Below, in pieces: positions 21,446-30,274 of a stretch of DNA of 64,000 nt. The notes beneath the pieces are model-generated. The model did not search any database. It worked only from the letters and a program-made list of their open reading frames with translations, and was not told where the DNA came from. Source of the DNA: Candidatus Methylomirabilia bacterium (GTDB taxonomy: Bacteria; Methylomirabilota; Methylomirabilia; Rokubacteriales; CSP1-6); the NCBI GenBank assembly GCA_041499965.1, contig JBGQLG010000004.1:15103-79102 (forward strand). Reading direction: 5' to 3'. The stretch's first letter is position 1. Each line of letters opens with the position of its first letter. Position numbers and translations under genes: made by a program.

Positions 21446-22204
21446 CTAGAAGTCGATATCAAAGCGGACGAGCGGAGCACCCAGCGACAGCTCGTTCGGC
21501 TGGATGTCCAGGCAGCGGCCGGCCGGGGTCCCCGCCGCCTCGACGTTGTCGAGGTAGGCAAGGTCGACACCGCCGTAGAGCGCCGCTGCGTAGGGGTTCG
21601 GGTTCGGGGTCAACGGGCAGAAGATCTGGCGCAGGGTCAGCTTCATCTTCACTCCGGGCGCGACCTCGACCTCGGTCTCGAAGTTGCCCGCGAAGGGCAG
21701 CCGGAAGACGCCCGTGAAATTGCGATTGCGGCCCCGGTCCGCCTTCACCTTGCCGACGACGGTGCCGAACGGGATGTCGTGCAGGATCGCCGGCGAGAAA
21801 TCCATCTGCCCGTGGAACTCGCCCTTGAGCACCACGGCCTCCGGCCCGTCCACGGGGTTGTCACCCTGGATGACCGTCGCGAAGTTGCCATCGAGCGTGC
21901 CCAGGCCGGTGGTGAGACTGACGTTGTCACTGCCGAGCACGTTGACCGCGCAACCGGCCGGACCGCTCTGCAGATCCGCGCTCGGGCACAGCGGCGTCCC
22001 GGGCACGGCCACACCGGTGATCGCCGAGGTGGCGAGGCGACGGGCGACCGGCGGACGATGCCGTTGATTCCTCTGCACCAGCTTCATGTTCTCGGTCAGC
22101 TCATAAAGGGTCGCGTCGCTCGCACGGGCCAGGGCCGGCGCGCTAGCAACGGCGACACCCACCAATCCCAGAATGGCGACGATCCGCTTTGATGTCGGCT
22201 TCAT
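21446..22204 (-). CDS. secreted hypothetical protein
   Basis: MKPTSKRIVAILGLVGVAVASAPALARA signal peptide. No recognisable domain. Confidence 0.5.
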   Translation of the reverse strand: MKPTSKRIVAILGLVGVAVASAPALARASDATLYELTENMKLVQRNQRHRPPVARRLATSAITGVAVPGTPLCPSADLQSGPAGCAVNVLGSDNVSLTTGLGTLDGNFATVIQGDNPVDGPEAVVLKGEFHGQMDFSPAILHDIPFGTVVGKVKADRGRNRNFTGVFRLPFAGNFETEVEVAPGVKMKLTLRQIFCPLTPNPNPYAAALYGGVDLAYLDNVEAAGTPAGRCLDIQPNELSLGAPLVRFDIDF

Positions 22205-22433
22205 CTTGCTCTCCGTTCTCCGCGCTCCAACGTCGCTCGCCGGTGCGAGGCTTCAATGGCCCGCTTGGGCGGGATCAACTACTACAGCAAGCTCAGTACC
22301 AAACTACGCGACCGATCCATAACCTATTGGGAATAAAGATAAGATTGCCTCAGGCGCCCCCTCAAACTGCGGTCTCCCGGGTGATTCCTTAACGACTGAT
22401 CAGGTCGAGGTGACACGAACGGCGAGAAACTGA

Positions 22434-24071: not shown

Positions 24072-24449
24072 TCAGGCGCGATCCGCCAGGACCTTCTCCA
24101 CAGTCCCGCGCAGCTCGTCGGACGTGAACGGCTTGAGGAGAATCGCGTGAAAACCCATGCGGTTGGCTTCATCGATGATCTCGGGGGTGCCGTGACCTGT
24201 CACCAGCACCACGGCCATGCCGGGGTGCAGCGTGCGGGCCTGCTGAAAGACCTCGAACCCGGTCATCCCGGGCATCTTGTAGTCGAGGACCATCAAATCG
24301 AATGGTTCTTTTCGCATCAACTCCACTGCGGTCTCGCCGCGGTTGGCGCCCTTGACGGCGTACCCGAGCGCCTGGAGGACGTTGACGCACAGGACGACGA
24401 CCGGACCGGCGTCGTCGACGATCAGGATCTTGGTCTTGGCCGGGCTCAA
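24072..24449 (-). CDS. single-domain response regulator (CheY-like)
   Basis: ILIVDD...LMVLDYKMPGMTG...LLKPF. Confidence 0.85.
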   Translation of the reverse strand: MSPAKTKILIVDDAGPVVVLCVNVLQALGYAVKGANRGETAVELMRKEPFDLMVLDYKMPGMTGFEVFQQARTLHPGMAVVLVTGHGTPEIIDEANRMGFHAILLKPFTSDELRGTVEKVLADRA

Positions 24450-26044
24450 TTCGCCTGGGCCAACGCAGGCGAGTCGGTCGCGCTGCCGCTCGTGAGCGTT
24501 TCGTAGTGCCGGGTGATCTCTTCCAGACGCTCCAGCGGGACCCTGAGGAAAGCCTCGACCACCGCCGGGTCGAAGTGCGAGCCGACGCCGCGCGAGATCT
24601 CCTCGCGGGCCTCACCCAGCGCGAGCGCCGTGCGATACGGCCGGTTCGAGGTGATCGCGTCGAAGACGTCGGCTACCGTGACCACCCGCGCGACGATCGG
24701 GATGTCCTCAGCCCGCAGGCCGTCGGGATAGCCGGTGCCGTCCCACCGCTCGTGGTGGTGACGGACCGCGCACGTCTCGCGGGCCAGGAATCGCAGGGGC
24801 TCGAGGATCTTGGCCCCGACCACCGGGTGGCTCTTGATGATCGTGAACTCCTCGGCGGTGAGCCGCTCGGGTTTCCGCAAGATCGTGTCCATGATGGACA
24901 GCTTGCCGAGGTCGTGCAGCATCGCCCCCCGCCGGACCACTTCCACCATCTCCAGCGTCATGCCCATCGTCTGCGCGATCTCGGCGGCGTAGAGCGCCAC
25001 CCGGGCGGAGTGACCCTTGAGGTACCGGTCCTTGGACTCGATGGCGTTGACGAAGGCCGTGATGGTGTCGACGAGGTTGCGCTCGACGTTCTCGCGCAAG
25101 ATCAGCTTTTGCAGCGCCACGGCCGTGCTCTGGGCGTAGCCCAGCAGCATGTCGCGCTCGTCCGGCAGGAAACCGCCGGTGGTCGCCTCGCGGGCGAGGC
25201 ACACGATGCCCATGGTGTGCCCCACCCCGGGGATGACGGCCGCCATCGCTTCGAGCGGCTCGCCGGCGATGGTGACACCGAGCGTCTCGCGTCTGCCGCC
25301 GGCGACCATATCCTCGAATGACCGCTGCAGTGACGTCAGCAGCCGCGTCACCAGCGGGCCGGCGCCCTGCTGGCTGCAGCCGAAGGCGCCCTGCTCGTCG
25401 CGCAGGAGCACGAGGGCCGCGTCGCTCTTGATGCTCTGTCCGATCAGGCCGAGCACCTCGTCCATGAACGCCGAGGTCTCGAGCCCCTGTAGGGCCAGGT
25501 CGCCGATGCGGAACATCACCTCCACGCCGGACTGCCGGCGCGACAGCTCCTCCGTGAGCCCGGCCGGCAACGGCACCTGGCCGTCCCACTTCAGACGGTC
25601 GGCCCGGATGCGCACCAGCAGCTCCTGGACCTCGCGGATCGAGAAGGGCTTCGGCAAGTAGTCGTAGGCGCCGTGGCGCAGGCCAAAGACCGCCGAGTTG
25701 ACCGAGGGGTTGCCGGTGATGAGCACGACCGGTGTCGCCGGCTGCTTGCCCTTCACCGCGCGGAGCAGATCCAGGCCCGACAGCCCCGGCATTTTGATGT
25801 CGGACACGACGAGATCGAAGGCGTGCGCGGTGATCAAGGTCAGCGCCTGCTCGGCGGCTGCGGCCTGCGTCACCGTGCACCCGTTGGCCGAGAAGGCCGA
25901 GACGAGAAAGCGCAACAGCGACGCGTTGTCGTCGACCACGAGGACTCGGAGGACCTCGGGGGCGACGGCGCTCGGAGAAACCGCGGGCATGGGCACCAGT
26001 CCTCCTACTTGGCGGCCGACATCTGGCTGAGGAACTCCATCCAC
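24446..26044 (-). CDS. response regulator with HD-GYP c-di-GMP phosphodiesterase output
   Basis: VLVVDDN...DIKMPGLSG REC domain. HD-GYP: LHDLGK and HHERWDGTGYP. ATGA overlap with the CheY gene. Confidence 0.85.
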   Translation of the reverse strand: MDGVPQPDVGRQVGGLVPMPAVSPSAVAPEVLRVLVVDDNASLLRFLVSAFSANGCTVTQAAAAEQALTLITAHAFDLVVSDIKMPGLSGLDLLRAVKGKQPATPVVLITGNPSVNSAVFGLRHGAYDYLPKPFSIREVQELLVRIRADRLKWDGQVPLPAGLTEELSRRQSGVEVMFRIGDLALQGLETSAFMDEVLGLIGQSIKSDAALVLLRDEQGAFGCSQQGAGPLVTRLLTSLQRSFEDMVAGGRRETLGVTIAGEPLEAMAAVIPGVGHTMGIVCLAREATTGGFLPDERDMLLGYAQSTAVALQKLILRENVERNLVDTITAFVNAIESKDRYLKGHSARVALYAAEIAQTMGMTLEMVEVVRRGAMLHDLGKLSIMDTILRKPERLTAEEFTIIKSHPVVGAKILEPLRFLARETCAVRHHHERWDGTGYPDGLRAEDIPIVARVVTVADVFDAITSNRPYRTALALGEAREEISRGVGSHFDPAVVEAFLRVPLERLEEITRHYETLTSGSATDSPALAQAN

Positions 26045-27450
26045 TGCCGCGTCAGCACACCGTCGTTCGGGAACTTCAGCCCTTCGAAGCCCTGCGGCAG
26101 CGCGGGCGACGCCGGCTTGGCGTCGGCGGCCGCGCGCTCACGGGAGGCCGTCGCCGGGGCGGCCAGCGCAGACTCGAGTACCAGCGCCGGCGGCTCCACG
26201 GGCTTGACGCGCTCCTCGATCACCACCGCCGGCACGATCGCCTTCGGCTCCTCGACCGGCTCGGGAATGCGCGGCTCAAGCATGAGCTCCAGGGGCGCGG
26301 TCACGATCGGCTCGGCGGCCAGGGCCTCGACGGCGGCCTCGAGGACGAGCGGCTCGGCGAGGGTCGGCGCGGTCGCCACGGTGGCCACCGCCTCGTTGAG
26401 GGCGACCTGGGTCGCGGTCGTGGCGCCGAGCAGCGCGGTCGCGAGATCCTTGAACGACACCCGCTCGGGAGCCGGGGCGGTGGCGGTCACCACGTGCGCC
26501 GGCGCGATCGCTGGCACGGCATCCAGTACCGGACGCGCCGGCGGCGCCGGGATCTCCGGCAGTGCCAGCGGCTCGATCGTGGCCTCGGGCTCGATCGAGA
26601 GTTCCAGGGTCTCCACCGCGTCGGCCAGCGATACGATCGGGTCCGGCGCCGCGGCGACGAGAGCTTCGACGACGGGCTCGGCCATCAGCGGCTCCGGCTC
26701 GCGCAGCATCACCGGCTCGGCCGCCGGGCGCGGGCGCTCGGTCCACGGTGCCGTGACGACAGCCTGTCGGCTGACCATGCTGACCACGGGCGCCGGCTCA
26801 CGCGACGGGACCACACGTTCGGCGGCGCGGGGCCCGCCGGTGGGCGCGTCGGGGCTCGCCTGCGTGAGGAGCTTCTGGATCTTGGCGCCGGTCGCGCGCG
26901 CGGCAGCGCCGTTCATCGTGATGACGTTCTCGGCGGCTGGGCCCGTCAGCGAGTCCGGGTCGACCATGCGGGCGCTGGCCGGAACGACAGCCCGGCGGAG
27001 CCGTAGGAGCGACTCGAAGTAGACCGCGGGAACGCCGTCGAACTCCAGGTGGCGGAACTCCACGCAGTCGACCTCGGGGAAGCCGAGCTGCTTGATCTTG
27101 CGGTGGAAGGCGTCAGGCATGCGCTCGACCACGAAGAGCAAGCGCGGCGGCCGGTCCTCCGACACCTGGCAGCTTGGGTAGAGCCGCACCAGCGCCTCGG
27201 GATACTCCAGGCACCACGAATAGGCCTCAACGGCCTTCATGAGCATCTCCTCGTTCGCGGTGAATCCGACTGCGCCCAGCACGAGTGCGCCAACGGCGTC
27301 GACGCCGATCACGTCGATCGTCGCGTGCCCCAGCAGCAGGCGTGCGTCGAGGACGGTGAGGCCGGGCTCGATGGCGTCGAAGTTCTCGACGACCAGTGCC
27401 TGCAGCTTGGCGGCATCCTCGATTCGCAGTTTCCTGATCCCCACTCTCAT
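26005..27450 (-). CDS. hypothetical protein: N-terminal NucS/DUF91-like nuclease-fold domain lacking catalytic E-x-K, followed by a long Pro/Glu/Ala/Val-rich low-complexity region
   Basis: ATG at complement of 27450 is preceded by GAGGAG. LQALVVENFDAIEPGLTVLDARLLLGHATIDVIGVDAVGALVLGAVG follows the NucS pattern (ENxxxIExGL...IDLxxxDxxGxxVVIELK) with ELK replaced by GAV. The ORF-track start at 27528 is unlikely. Confidence 0.6.
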   Translation of the reverse strand: MRVGIRKLRIEDAAKLQALVVENFDAIEPGLTVLDARLLLGHATIDVIGVDAVGALVLGAVGFTANEEMLMKAVEAYSWCLEYPEALVRLYPSCQVSEDRPPRLLFVVERMPDAFHRKIKQLGFPEVDCVEFRHLEFDGVPAVYFESLLRLRRAVVPASARMVDPDSLTGPAAENVITMNGAAARATGAKIQKLLTQASPDAPTGGPRAAERVVPSREPAPVVSMVSRQAVVTAPWTERPRPAAEPVMLREPEPLMAEPVVEALVAAAPDPIVSLADAVETLELSIEPEATIEPLALPEIPAPPARPVLDAVPAIAPAHVVTATAPAPERVSFKDLATALLGATTATQVALNEAVATVATAPTLAEPLVLEAAVEALAAEPIVTAPLELMLEPRIPEPVEEPKAIVPAVVIEERVKPVEPPALVLESALAAPATASRERAAADAKPASPALPQGFEGLKFPNDGVLTRQWMEFLSQMSAAK

Positions 27451-27511
27451 CGCTTTTGGCTCCTCACTCAGATGGGCCGGTCGCCCCGGCTCCGTTCGGA
27501 CCCGGAGAGAG

Positions 27512-27527
27512 AGCAAAGGGGGTACCA
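27512..27527 (-). promoter_or_regulatory. candidate sigma-54 promoter (-24/-12): TGGTAC-N5-TTGCT on the minus strand
   Basis: Reverse complement of 27512-27527 is TGGTACCCCCTTTGCT. GG and GC are spaced as in TGGCAC-N5-TTGCW, with one mismatch. Lies about 60 nt upstream of ATG 27450 and just downstream of the sigma-54 activator gene. Confidence 0.55.
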
Positions 27528-27660
27528 AAGCAGACTGTGACGGACAACCCCAGGAGGGACAAAGCTTTTTGGAGCAGAACGGGGAGGGGCGAGGAGGACA
27601 GGATGGGTGATTCGTGTCCGCCCACGCCAGGTTTTCGTGGGGGGTGTGGCCAGAAACGGG

Positions 27661-29019
27661 TCAGGCTAGGGGGGTGGCTTCCGTCAGCTTCTTGCGCAGG
27701 GTCTGCCGCGTGATTCCGAGGATCTTGGCGGCCTCGCTCTTGTTCCCGTTGGCCTGCCGCAGCACCTTGAGGATGTAAGCGCGCTCGACAGCCTCCAGGG
27801 TCCGGGGCTCGCGGGAAACTTCTTCCGGCAAGGGGCCATCTGTTGCCGCCGCGAACGGCACCGGCATCTGGTCGGCCTCGATCGTGTCGCCTACGCTCAG
27901 GATCACCAGGCGCTCGATCAGGTTCTTGAGCTCGCGCACGTTGCCCGGCCACCCGTAGGCCAGCAGGAGTGACTCCGACTCCGTCGCCAGGCGCTTGACG
28001 GCCTTGTGAAAGGTGCTGTTGGCCTCGGCCAGGAAATGACGCGCCAGGGGCAGGATGTCCTCCCGGCGCTCGCGCACCGGTGGGATCGTGAGCGGGATGA
28101 CGTTCAGCCGGTAGAAGAGGTCCTCGCGGAACTTGCCCTCCTTCACCATCGTCTCGAGGGATCGGTTGGTGGCGGCAATCACCCGGACGTCGACCTTGAG
28201 GTCGCGGGTGCCGCCGACGCGCTTGAAGGTCCGCTCTTGCAGGCAGCGGAGCAGCTTGGCTTGGCTGGCCAGCGGGATCTCACCGACCTCGTCCAGGAAG
28301 AGCGTGCCGCCGTCCGCCAGCTCCATGAGGCCCTTCTTCGTGCTCTTGGCGTCGGTGAAAGCGCCCTTCTCGTGGCCGAAGATCTCGCTCTCGAACAGCG
28401 TCTCCGTGATCGCGGCGCAGTTGACCTCCATGAACGGCGAGTTGCGGCGGGCGCTCTCGTAGTGCAGCCCACGGGCGACCAGCTCCTTGCCGGTGCCGCT
28501 CTCCCCCTGCACGAGGATCGTGTGCGCCTCGCTCTGGGCCAGCTGCGTGATCACTTCGCGAAGCCGGCGAGTCGACGTCGACTCCCCGACGATCTGGTTC
28601 GTCCGGTACTTTCCCTCCTGCAGGCCTTGCAGCCGGGTGATCTCGCGGCGCGCCTTCACCTCGTCGAGCGCCCGGGTGACCGTGATACGCAGTTTCTCCA
28701 GATGCTGGAACGGCTTCTCGAGGTAGTCGGTAGCGCCGTTCTTCATGGCGATCACGACGCTTTCGATGTGACCGAAGGCGGTGATCATGATGACCGCGGT
28801 CTGCGGGTGCCGCGCGCGCATCTCCCGCAGGACCTGGATCCCGTCGATGTCGGGCAGGCGCAGGTCGACGAGGGCCACGTCGGGCTCCACCTGGTCGGCG
28901 ATCTCCAGCCCGTCCTTGCCGGTGCCGGCGGTGTGGACCTCGATGTTGTCCTGCCCGAGGACGCGGGATACCAGAGAACGAATGTTGCGCTCATCGTCGA
29001 TCACGAGGACTGAATTCAT
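27661..29019 (-). CDS. sigma-54-dependent Fis-family response regulator (NtrC-like: REC-AAA+-HTH)
   Basis: GESGTGKE Walker A. ESELFGHEKGAFTDA (GAFTGA-type). C-terminal Fis-type HTH (EAAKILGITRQTLRKKL). Confidence 0.9.
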   Translation of the reverse strand: MNSVLVIDDERNIRSLVSRVLGQDNIEVHTAGTGKDGLEIADQVEPDVALVDLRLPDIDGIQVLREMRARHPQTAVIMITAFGHIESVVIAMKNGATDYLEKPFQHLEKLRITVTRALDEVKARREITRLQGLQEGKYRTNQIVGESTSTRRLREVITQLAQSEAHTILVQGESGTGKELVARGLHYESARRNSPFMEVNCAAITETLFESEIFGHEKGAFTDAKSTKKGLMELADGGTLFLDEVGEIPLASQAKLLRCLQERTFKRVGGTRDLKVDVRVIAATNRSLETMVKEGKFREDLFYRLNVIPLTIPPVRERREDILPLARHFLAEANSTFHKAVKRLATESESLLLAYGWPGNVRELKNLIERLVILSVGDTIEADQMPVPFAAATDGPLPEEVSREPRTLEAVERAYILKVLRQANGNKSEAAKILGITRQTLRKKLTEATPLA

Positions 29020-29194: not shown

Positions 29195-30274
29195 ATGACT
29201 GATCTGCCGACGGGTCGATCCAGAGACGAAGCACGAGTGGCGACCGAGCGCCTCAAGCAGCTCATCGCCATCGGCATCGCGCTGACCAGTGAGCGCGAAC
29301 TGTCGAAGCTCCTCGAGCGGATCGTCGGCGAGGCCCGGCGCTTCGCCAACGCCGAGACCGGCGCCCTCTTCCTTCGTGACGGCGACGCGCTGCGCTTCGC
29401 CGTGGCGCAGAATGACGGGCTGCTCGAGCGCCTGGGCGAGCGCGAGATGCGGCGCCACTTCGCTGCCGAGCCGCTCACGCTCGCCCAGCCGAGCCTGGCC
29501 GGTTACGTCGCGCTGACCGGTCGTCTGGTCAACCTCCCCGACAGCGACGAGGCGCTGCAGGACCAGCCCTACGCCTTCAACCGCGAGCTCGACGCCCTGT
29601 TTCGGTACCAGACAGGCTCGGTGCTCGTGGTTCCGCTCCAGGAACCCAAGGGCGAGGTGATCGGCGTGCTGCAGCTCGTCAACGCGCGCAACGACCACGG
29701 CGAGGTCGTGCCCTTCGAAGCCGAGCTGGAGGGCCTGGTCCAGGCGCTCGCCTCCCAGGCCGCGGTGGCCATCCGCAACGCCCGGCTCGAGGAACTGTCG
29801 TTCAAGGATCCTCTCACCGGCGTCTACAACCGTCGGCACTTCGCGCTCCGCATCGAAGAGGAGGCCAGGCGCCACGCCCGCTTCGGCGAGCCGCTCTCGC
29901 TGGTCCTTCTCGACCTCGACCGCTTCAAGCAGATCAACGACGAGCTGGGGCACGCGGCCGGCGACGACACGCTGCGCGAGTCGGCCCAGCTCATCGTGGC
30001 CAACTCGCGCAGCTTCTCGGTCGTGACCCGCTACGGCGGCGACGAGTTCGCGGTGCTCCTCGTCAACACGCCCAAGGCCGGCGCCGTCAAGTACGCGCGC
30101 CGCATCAAGGACGTGATCGAGCGCCATCGGTTCGTGCACGGACCGCTCACGGTCAGCGTGGGGATCGCCGCGCTGCCCGAGGACGTGACGCACAGCGCGG
30201 ACCTCGTGCCGGCGGCGGATCGCGCACTCTACGCGGCCAAGCGTCTCGGCCGGAATCTCATCGAAGTCGCATAG
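29195..30274 (+). CDS. GAF-domain diguanylate cyclase (GAF-GGDEF)
   Basis: LDLDRFKQIND, RYGGDEF, LYAAKRLGRN. Confidence 0.85.
   Translation: MTDLPTGRSRDEARVATERLKQLIAIGIALTSERELSKLLERIVGEARRFANAETGALFLRDGDALRFAVAQNDGLLERLGEREMRRHFAAEPLTLAQPSLAGYVALTGRLVNLPDSDEALQDQPYAFNRELDALFRYQTGSVLVVPLQEPKGEVIGVLQLVNARNDHGEVVPFEAELEGLVQALASQAAVAIRNARLEELSFKDPLTGVYNRRHFALRIEEEARRHARFGEPLSLVLLDLDRFKQINDELGHAAGDDTLRESAQLIVANSRSFSVVTRYGGDEFAVLLVNTPKAGAVKYARRIKDVIERHRFVHGPLTVSVGIAALPEDVTHSADLVPAADRALYAAKRLGRNLIEVA

Follow-up and report, generated by a model that had tools for sequence, protein, structure and literature searches.

Gene organization and promoter

The gene studied here, X, lies on the minus strand of the 64,000-nucleotide stretch of DNA that was analysed (the window). 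Its open reading frame was found exactly where an earlier note on this DNA had put it, at 26005-27450, and encodes 481 amino acids from the ATG. The gene and its surroundings contain the following features:

27661-29019, minus strand: NtrC-like sigma-54 activator (REC - AAA+ - HTH_8, by Pfam), directly upstream of X
27605-27614, minus strand: intergenic block GAATCACCC, a candidate activator-binding (UAS) site
27512-27527, minus strand: sigma-54 type promoter TGGTACCCCCTTTGCT (-24 TGGTAC / -12 TTGCT), 62-77 nt upstream of the X ATG
27460-27465, minus strand: Shine-Dalgarno sequence GAGGAG, found by reading the sequence and kept as GAGGAG in the orthologue alignment
26005-27450, minus strand: gene X, 481-aa protein, from the list of open reading frames (stop codon 26005-26007)
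24446-25990, minus strand: response-regulator HD-GYP protein (Response_reg + HD_5, by Pfam and synteny)
24072-24449, minus strand: single-domain CheY-like response regulator (Pfam), its start overlapping the HD-GYP gene by 4 nt

Three observations speak for the ATG and against an upstream TTG at 27528: the GAGGAG sequence is located 10-15 nt upstream of the ATG, the orthologues share the N-terminal start M(R/K)xxx(R/K)KL, and an open reading frame begun at the TTG would overlap the sigma-54 promoter.

Exact matches to the sigma-54 promoter occur twice in the window, while 0.04 are expected by chance. The promoter block upstream of X is invariant in 11 species and is the best-conserved part of the intergenic region. 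A GG-N10-GC (-24/-12) element precedes X in all of the 44 syntenic loci, at -41 to -94, and an NtrC-like activator gene adjoins X in every one of them. With the correct spacing of the -24 GG and -12 GC, the conservation of the element and the adjoining activator, this is a predicted sigma-54-dependent operon, and the previous description of X as its first gene holds. The GAATCACCC block, which reads (A/G)GAATCA.CC in the majority of the 11 aligned species, is situated approximately 80-100 nt upstream of the -24 element; from this conservation we infer that it may serve the activator as a binding site. The second sigma-54 promoter of the window precedes an ORF of 252 aa with a signal peptide. 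This ORF was considered as a separately encoded version of the C-terminal domain found in paralogues of X and was rejected on account of the signal peptide and the lack of similarity; no second copy of the N-terminal or C-terminal domain of X is present elsewhere in the window.

Downstream, the probable ATG of the HD-GYP gene (25990) is only 15 nt past the X stop codon. The gene order NtrC / X / RR-HD-GYP / RR / MT / MT (MT, methyltransferase) is conserved wherever the contig reaches far enough, and the operon arrangement is kept across Rokubacteria/Methylomirabilota. A 7TM histidine kinase is also encoded in the cluster, and a divergent GAF-GGDEF gene flanks the operon, a GGDEF neighbour being present in only about one third of the syntenic loci. 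An anti-phage defence nuclease (Shedu, Hachiman, Card1-like) was considered for X and rejected, as the PADLOC search gave no match for it and the neighbourhood consists of signalling genes.

Predicted fold of the N-terminal domain

X consists of three parts. A head with a NucS-type fold is followed by a long spacer, predicted to be disordered, and the chain ends in a short, conserved helix:

26986-27450, minus strand: predicted NucS/EndoMS-like PD-(D/E)xK-fold domain, residues 1-155 (AF2, Foldseek, PDB profile search, orthologue conservation)
26095-26985, minus strand: disordered Ala/Pro/Val/Glu-rich spacer, residues 156-452 (pLDDT, composition, orthologue comparison)
26008-26094, minus strand: conserved C-terminal module, residues 453-481, LPQGFEGLKFPNDGVLTRQWMEFLSQMSAAK (invariant residues, conservation map, pLDDT, hydrophobic moment)
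26023-26049, minus strand: amphipathic helix, residues 468-476 (helix pLDDT about 70, hydrophobic moment 0.6)

The relationship of X to NucS is visible only through family profiles and the structure model, since searches with the single sequence were empty both in Pfam (no matches at E <= 1) and in the PDB (no phmmer matches). The only match in the NCBIfam scan was NucS itself, and it was weak (E 0.088; 11.8 bits for the whole protein against the NF003270 model, which has a cut-off of 216). A profile built from 28 N-domain sequences, on the other hand, placed EndoMS (E 3.7e-4) first and NucS (E 0.01) second among 177,635 PDB sequences, the third-best match having an E-value of 0.26. The AlphaFold model of the N-domain (pLDDT 86, pTM 0.79; AF2 pLDDT mostly >90 across residues 1-155) has EndoMS 5gke_A (E 1.5e-5) and NucS 2vld (E 8e-5) as its best Foldseek matches, all EndoMS/NucS matches falling between E 1.5e-5 and 2e-4 with a probability of 1.00. 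Below them the list continues with other PD-(D/E)xK proteins, namely 3dnx, Card1, SduA, SfsA, HamA and restriction enzymes. According to these matches the N-domain possesses the alpha/beta core fold with the active-site beta-hairpin of the PD-(D/E)xK superfamily, and it is strongly conserved between orthologues. Thus residues 1-155 are predicted, on the basis of the model, to adopt the RecB-like nuclease fold of the NucS/EndoMS C-terminal domain. The likeness to this domain that the earlier note had recognised over residues ~10-150 goes beyond chance, EndoMS/NucS being ranked first by the PDB profile and by Foldseek, and the structure prediction did not yield some other fold.

The alignments of X cover only residues 133-209 of EndoMS. 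The N-terminal domain of NucS, which is responsible for mismatch recognition and dimerisation (PMC8228993) and comprises about 115 aa in NucS/EndoMS, is missing from X, where the nuclease-like domain begins at residue ~10. The common part includes an IEPGL-type motif.

Loss of two catalytic residues

Two sites in the head correspond to the active center of EndoMS:

27313-27315, minus strand: codon D46, equivalent to the catalytic D165 of EndoMS and kept (HMM alignment, constant offset 119)
27265-27273, minus strand: codons A60-V61-G62 in place of EndoMS E179-x-K181 (HMM alignments)

Of the catalytic triad D165/E179/K181 (T. kodakarensis numbering) only the aspartate is retained in X as D46, the glutamate being replaced by A60 and the lysine by G62, so that the functional (D/E)xK motif of the PD-(D/E)xK superfamily is lacking. 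The same holds for the family: among 246 members position 46 is occupied by D in 227 and by E in 14, position 60 is A, T or V, position 62 is G, D or A, and (D/E)x(K/R) is found at the aligned beta-3 positions in none of them (0/246); homologues retaining the E-x-K residues were therefore not found. The RecB QxxxY motif has likewise lost its Gln (position 73 is A/V/M/I), and its Tyr is kept as Y77. In EndoMS either E179A or K181A alone abolishes the activity (PMC4838380). The replacement of the catalytic E-x-K, previously claimed, is thus correct, but the replacing residues are not G-A-V: the HMM alignment gives A60-V61-G62, as the alignment in the earlier note also implies. We consider it probable that X is non-catalytic and acts as a signalling adaptor rather than as an enzyme.

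The spacer and the C-terminal module

The spacer of X is acidic and disordered, and selection acts on its composition only. The mean AF2 pLDDT per 10-residue block stays below 60 throughout residues 159-455 and is mostly below 50. Five amino acids account for 67% of the segment (A 22%, P 15%, V 11%, E 10%, L 9%), which bears out the compositional bias, described before as a Pro/Glu/Ala/Val-rich tail. The additional description of the tail as highly repetitive was rejected, because Tandem Repeats Finder detected merely two weak short arrays of 27 and 44 nt. Among 39 orthologues the spacer varies from 125 to 538 aa, its A+P+V+E+L content stays within 56-74%, and there is essentially no positional conservation. 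X offers an example of a long disordered segment that is conserved in composition and not in sequence. Real repeats are present in the tail of some orthologues, for example P0111.

The short conserved C-terminus noticed earlier (FPNDGVLTRQWMEFLSQM) is present across the orthologues. The last ~29 residues follow the pattern LP.DG.LTRQW..FL.Q(M/L), in which G464, R468 and Q476 are invariant. In almost every complete family member WxxFL stands ~11 residues before the C-terminal end, and some members carry it in duplicate. A protein-database search with the C-terminal 42 aa returned only fragments of 32-72 aa from the same family, the motif occurring in no other family. Consensus patterns for the PIP box (Qxx[LIVM]xx[FYWH][FYWL]) and the beta-clamp motif (QL[SDA]LF / QLxLx[LF]) matched the last 40 residues in 0 of 39 orthologues, and a NucS-like clamp-binding C-terminus was rejected on this pattern.

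The family and its paralogues

The X family comprises 786 representatives at 50% identity, 343 of them at E <= 1e-10, and all named members belong to Rokubacteria/Methylomirabilota, an uncultured lineage of soil and groundwater. Neither Pfam nor NCBIfam has a model for the family, full-length distant members have no Pfam match, and literature searches on the family, on Rokubacteria/sigma-54/HD-GYP and on NucS-like inactive domains yielded nothing relevant. Once the family is defined, annotators could assign several hundred "hypothetical proteins" to a domain model. Three entries from contigs of ~1 kb (P0073, P0078, P0079) were left out, as they look like read-through or chimeric gene calls.

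An architecture of N-domain, disordered region and REC was found in two independent 50%-identity cluster representatives and at locus L044, where the REC domain is 61% identical to the CheY-like regulator of the operon. Such receiver fusions favour the scaffold or adaptor reading of X. However, an internal WxxFL persists in the REC-fusion paralogue, which makes a plain replacement of the motif by the fused domain less likely. In some paralogues the motif is internal and placed just ahead of a folded domain; the C-terminal 95-aa domain of paralogues has no relative in the PDB or Pfam. The motif is also present in paralogues outside the signalling cluster, so that it might bind the protein's own N-domain or some housekeeping target and not a receiver encoded in the operon. 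Type-B paralogues of Rokubacteria (L046-L049), the kind with a C-domain, keep the N-domain and have no WxxFL motif.

Discussion

Taken as a whole, the data make it about an even chance that X is a non-catalytic "pseudo-nuclease" serving as an adaptor or tether in a two-component/c-di-GMP module. According to this scheme, once the NtrC-like activator is switched on, X would be co-expressed with the HD-GYP protein and the CheY-like regulator. It would then act as a flexible tether, the folded head of which binds some target or self-associates, and the C-terminal helix would dock on a partner, for which a receiver domain from this module is the likeliest candidate. Such docking could position or sequester the output proteins of c-di-GMP and two-component signalling. 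The role of the head as a non-catalytic binding module and of X as a scaffold or sensor, proposed in the earlier note, is in agreement with this scheme and is likewise what we infer. A more specific version is possible but doubtful: X would represent a new class of bacterial signalling scaffold, in which the WxxFL helix at the end of a spacer of 125-538 residues captures the receiver of the co-transcribed CheY-like regulator and/or of the HD-GYP phosphodiesterase, perhaps in a phosphorylation-dependent manner. The module would thereby be organised in space, and the fusions in paralogues would hard-wire the same partnership. X is promoter-proximal in a module (sigma-54 activator, HD-GYP protein, CheY-like regulator, kinases) that is conserved in all of the syntenic loci recovered, and the identity of its partner would therefore shed light on the working of this module.

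One might argue that the WxxFL helix binds the N-domain of X itself, either in cis as auto-inhibition or in trans through head-to-tail oligomers or condensates, which would turn X into a self-assembling hub. The N-domain and the motif do co-occur family-wide in any genomic context, including paralogues outside the cluster and members with a duplicated motif, and the helix reaches a pLDDT of ~70 in the single-chain model of full-length X, above the rest of the tail. However, the type-B paralogues carry the N-domain without WxxFL, and we regard self-binding as unlikely. The same helix could instead be a membrane-targeting sequence. MinD and FtsA carry C-terminal amphipathic helices of this kind, and X would then be a hub anchored at the membrane or the pole, with its head tens of nanometres into the cytoplasm. 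The position of the helix at the extreme C-terminus, its hydrophobic moment of ~0.6, similar to that of the MinD and FtsA helices, and the 7TM histidine kinase of the cluster agree with such an anchor. Yet three invariant residues (G464, R468, Q476) and the conserved LP.DG.LTRQW..FL.Q pattern of ~20 residues are stricter than what generic lipid-binding helices show, the net charge is only about +1, and the motif is internal in paralogues, which renders membrane targeting rather improbable.

The remaining alternatives concern the head. It could be a non-cleaving DNA- or RNA-binding module. In that case X would associate with the nucleoid or with promoters and co-regulate the sigma-54 regulon, its tail touching RNA polymerase or the activator. 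The head shares its fold with a DNA endonuclease, several basic residues (R89, R103, R110, R117, K118, R150, R152) are conserved, and the gene adjoins that of the NtrC-like activator. Nevertheless, X is devoid of the NucS domain for mismatch recognition and dimerisation, no HTH or other DNA-binding Pfam domain was found in it, and the head is acidic overall (18 K+R versus 23 D+E, pI ~5.3), which argues against plain DNA binding; this role too is rather improbable. Active-site migration is known among PD-(D/E)xK enzymes, and D46, E67 (E/D) and K/R72 on the following helix are nearly invariant in the family, so X might still be an active nuclease with a migrated site of this kind. We consider this very unlikely, because the E179A or K181A substitution is by itself sufficient to kill EndoMS, the Gln of QxxxY is gone too, a signalling operon and a disordered tether are unlike nucleases, and the PADLOC search was empty. 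The least probable reading is that the degenerate pocket binds a small ligand, for instance c-di-GMP, which the divergent GGDEF protein would make and the HD-GYP protein break down; X would then be a second-messenger effector. The genes for synthesis and degradation are indeed next to the operon and within it, and the ligand might be bound by a conserved polar cluster (H42, D46, Y77, R103, E109, R110) and by the RLRR of residues 150-153. However, the signatures of known c-di-GMP binders such as PilZ and MshEN are missing from X, which has no Pfam match at all, and the GGDEF neighbour is confined to a minority of the loci. The reading is purely contextual.

The adaptor reading places X next to several known systems. 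NucS/EndoMS (2VLD, 5GKE) and X have in common the C-terminal RecB-like nuclease fold, the catalytic Asp, the Tyr of QxxxY and a short conserved motif at the extreme C-terminus. In NucS/EndoMS this motif is of the PIP box/beta-clamp type, which that of X is not; X has moreover exchanged the essential Glu and Lys for Ala and Gly, lost the Gln, and acquired an inserted disordered spacer, and its gene belongs to a signalling cluster, in contrast to replication and repair. The central domain of ERCC1 and the nuclease-like domain of RecC are non-catalytic PD-(D/E)xK binding modules. They resemble X in that the fold is kept, the catalytic residues are lost, and binding rather than cleavage is presumed. 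However, these modules act inside DNA-repair complexes beside an active nuclease, and X stands alone, carries a disordered tether and belongs to a two-component/c-di-GMP operon. It is thus a clean bacterial case of a repair-nuclease fold that lacks two catalytic residues, Glu and Lys, and is reused in a signalling operon.

At the other end of the protein, the FliM N-terminus and the CheZ C-terminus are receiver-binding helical peptides, and RomR-type scaffolds combine a receiver, a Pro-rich linker and a conserved C-terminus. X resembles them in its short conserved terminal helix, its flexible linker and its presumed functional association with CheY-like receivers; the likeness to RomR extends to the paralogues, in which architectures of a receiver and a Pro-rich disordered region exist. 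There is no sequence similarity, and the folded domain of X has a nuclease fold and is not a switch-complex or phosphatase domain. The MinD and FtsA helices share with that of X the extreme C-terminal position and a comparable hydrophobic moment; the X motif differs from them by its far stricter conservation, its little net positive charge and its internal placement in some paralogues. The layout of a folded domain, a disordered region and a short linear motif is a eukaryote-style architecture that has rarely been documented in bacteria.

The N-terminal domain is a probably inactivated nuclease fold

Single-sequence queries with X, the 481-residue protein under study, gave no matches in Pfam or PDB, and its sole NCBIfam match was NucS (E 0.088; 11.8 bits, cut-off 216). 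A profile of the N-terminal domain, or head (28 sequences, residues 1-158), run against all PDB sequences placed EndoMS (5gke, E 3.7e-4) and NucS (2vld, E 0.01) on top, the third-ranked match having an E-value of 0.26. The AlphaFold2 model of this domain (53 sequences; mean pLDDT 86, pTM 0.79) was searched against PDB with Foldseek and again EndoMS and NucS chains came out on top (E 1.5e-5 to 2e-4, probability 1.00), with other PD-(D/E)xK proteins below them: 3dnx, Card1, Shedu SduA, SfsA and HamA. Therefore, the head of X shares its RecB-like nuclease fold with the C-terminal domain of NucS, as the earlier note had proposed. X lacks the N-terminal dimerisation and mismatch-recognition domain which defines NucS (PMC8228993), and thus falls outside the NucS family.

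The HMM alignment of X and EndoMS runs at a constant offset of 119. It pairs D46 of X with EndoMS D165 (Ala in the crystallised mutant), and E179 and K181 with A60 and G62; in the RecB QxxxY motif the Gln is replaced by A73 and the Tyr is kept as Y77. Cleavage by EndoMS is abolished by D165A, E179A or K181A, each alone (PMC4838380). When 259 distinct family sequences were aligned to the profile, 246 spanned the active-site positions: 227 of them have D at position 46 and 14 have E, position 60 is A, T or V, position 62 is G, D or A, and (D/E)x(K/R) occurs in none. Every family member examined lacks the canonical catalytic Glu and Lys. On the helix that follows these positions, E67 (E/D) and K/R72 are conserved; a migrated active site in the head is unlikely. 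X is a pseudo-nuclease with the fold of the NucS catalytic domain.

A disordered spacer and a conserved C-terminal motif

Residues 159-455 consist of Ala (22%), Pro (15%), Val (11%), Glu (10%) and Leu (9%) for the most part and are predicted to be disordered in the full-length model, where all 10-residue blocks have a mean pLDDT below 60 and most below 50, with the exception of one weak helix at 333-356. Tandem Repeats Finder detected two weak short arrays and nothing more, so this region is compositionally biased and not repetitive. The earlier observation and structural reading of X are confirmed with two small corrections: the catalytic ExK is indeed lost, but the alignment gives A-V-G in its place and not G-A-V, and the tail has the biased composition ascribed to it without being highly repetitive. 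Spacer length varies between 125 and 538 residues in the 39 complete orthologues, with near-zero positional identity and a mildly negative net charge, and five residue types make up 56-74% of the spacer in each. Such a pattern marks a flexible spacer under selection on composition and reach rather than sequence. Tandem repeats of a PVMQVAEPVIEAPQ-like unit are obvious in the spacer of the 879-residue orthologue P0111 and suggest that repeat expansion enlarges the disordered region in some lineages, though the window copy is non-repetitive.

Conservation of the last ~29 residues equals that of the folded domain, and even the most divergent subfamily keeps G464, R468 and Q476 without exception. 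A helix is modelled at 468-476 (pLDDT ~70, hydrophobic moment ~0.6), and the core W-x-x-F-L-x-Q-(L/M) lies ~11 residues before the C-terminal end in nearly all complete members. WxxFL is present twice in P0140, P0142, P0149, P0170, P0189, P0197 and P0203, one copy in the spacer and the other near the C-terminus or directly before the C-terminal domain; this duplication suggests multivalent binding. No PIP box or beta-clamp motif was found in the C-terminus of any of the 39 orthologues, and the 42-residue tail of X matched fragments of its own family alone in the protein database.

Distribution and architectures of the family

The N-domain profile, searched against 1.84 billion representative proteins, matched 786 at E <= 1e-3 (343 at <= 1e-10, 162 at <= 1e-30). 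Nearly all of these proteins carry the domain at or close to their N-terminus, total lengths run from under 100 (fragments) to 879 aa, and, fusions excepted, family members carry no Pfam domains. A scan of GTDB species genomes yielded 49 loci, all from Rokubacteria/Methylomirabilota MAGs except two labelled only 'uncultured bacterium' and one labelled Binatia; the scan used a narrow peptide pattern and thus sets no limit on the taxonomic spread of distant members. The nearest relatives, in Candidatus Rokubacteria MAGs, share 92-93% N-domain identity with X. Three architectures are observed:

Type A (X of the window): head, spacer, C-terminal motif
Type B: head, Pro-rich spacer, 0-2 WxxFL, ~95-aa C-terminal globular domain (YDFYDF..QLQD..G)
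Receiver fusions (L044 8001..9386, P0118, P0138): head, acidic spacer with internal WxxFL, receiver domain

The ~95-aa domain (consensus ...EFP..TIYDFYD..R.AQVFQLQDSHG...) occurs in L046 8001..8960, L047-L049, P0149, P0170, P0189, P0192 and other members of a paralogous subfamily. It has no Pfam or PDB relative, its sole match being a weak one to a Cas2-like PADLOC entry (E 0.005). Genes near this subfamily encode, among others, a TPR protein, a hydrolase, acetyl-CoA synthetase and ArsR. The receiver-fusion paralogues lie in an unrelated neighbourhood without a sigma-54 promoter. The X family is an unannotated one, with a new architecture on a known fold.

The operon and its sigma-54 promoter

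Features of the X operon and its surroundings in the window
26005..27450 (-), gene X, a real ORF of 481 aa counted from the ATG
27512-27527 (-), sigma-54 promoter TGGTACCCCCTTTGCT, exact consensus match
~27605-27614 (-), second conserved block GAATCACCC, 80-100 nt upstream of the sigma-54 promoter (11-species alignment)
29195..30274 (+), GAF-GGDEF diguanylate cyclase gene, divergent from the NtrC-like activator
22286-22301 (-), second exact sigma-54 promoter match TGGTACTGAGCTTGCT, upstream of ORF 21446..22204

Wherever the contig is long enough the order is kept: NtrC-like activator, X, receiver-HD-GYP, CheY-like regulator, two methyltransferases, (secreted unknown), GNAT and 7TM-GAF histidine kinase. 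The GAF-GGDEF gene holds the divergent upstream position in about one third of the syntenic loci, the window included. The operon is not interrupted by any notable intrinsic terminator or sigma-70 promoter. The HD-GYP and response regulator genes overlap by 4 nt. The longest receiver-HD-GYP ORF, 24446..26044 (-), starts at a GTG at 26044 and has 40 nt in common with the end of X; the true start is likely the ATG at 25990, 15 nt past the X stop codon, a spacing as in L003. The ~180 residues separating its receiver from the HD-GYP domain have no Pfam match.

A longer X starting at TTG 27528 is unlikely, because a GAGGAG Shine-Dalgarno sequence lies 10-15 nt 5' of the ATG, orthologue N-termini share M(R/K)xxx(R/K)KL with the ATG start, and the extension would traverse the sigma-54 promoter.

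Exact sigma-54 consensus matches number two in the window (G+C ~70%) against 0.04 expected. TGGTACCCCCTTTGCT is the best-conserved block of an intergenic region that is otherwise ~53% identical among 11 species, and all 44 syntenic loci have a TGG-N9-TTGC element 41-94 nt 5' of the start codon. The GAATCACCC block could be an activator-binding site. An A/T-rich stretch, AAAAAGCTTTG, is located at 27561-27570 (-), between the NtrC-like gene and the promoter; the two are candidate activator-binding and DNA-bending sites. The TGGTACTGAGCTTGCT promoter is kept at the equivalent site in L001 and L003, and therefore the regulon appears to comprise at least two sigma-54 transcription units. The ORF behind it, 21446..22204 (-), encodes 252 aa with a signal peptide and no family assignment, its L003 counterpart having no Pfam match on record.

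Proposed function

X combines a nuclease fold that has lost the catalytic Glu and Lys with a disordered spacer and a helix conserved at the C-terminus; its gene has sigma-54 promoter elements and is tightly and conservedly linked to genes for receiver-domain and c-di-GMP proteins, and natural receiver fusions exist. From these features we infer that X is an adaptor or tether, made upon induction of the module. The head would serve for binding or self-association, and the terminal helix for docking. Simple DNA binding is made less likely by the acidic pI of the head (~5.3) and by the lack of the DNA-recognition domain of NucS. For X as a c-di-GMP receptor the argument is one of context only.

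The C-terminal motif is also found in paralogues outside the signalling cluster, and therefore the helix may bind targets other than a receiver: the head of X itself, in self-assembly or auto-inhibition, the membrane, or a housekeeping protein. Docking on a receiver domain would be the most plausible role of the helix, by analogy with the FliM and CheZ peptides, and natural head-receiver fusions support such a partner. The receiver fused in L044 is complete, with all phospho-acceptor residues present, and shares 61% identity with the CheY-like regulator encoded in the X operon (24072..24449).
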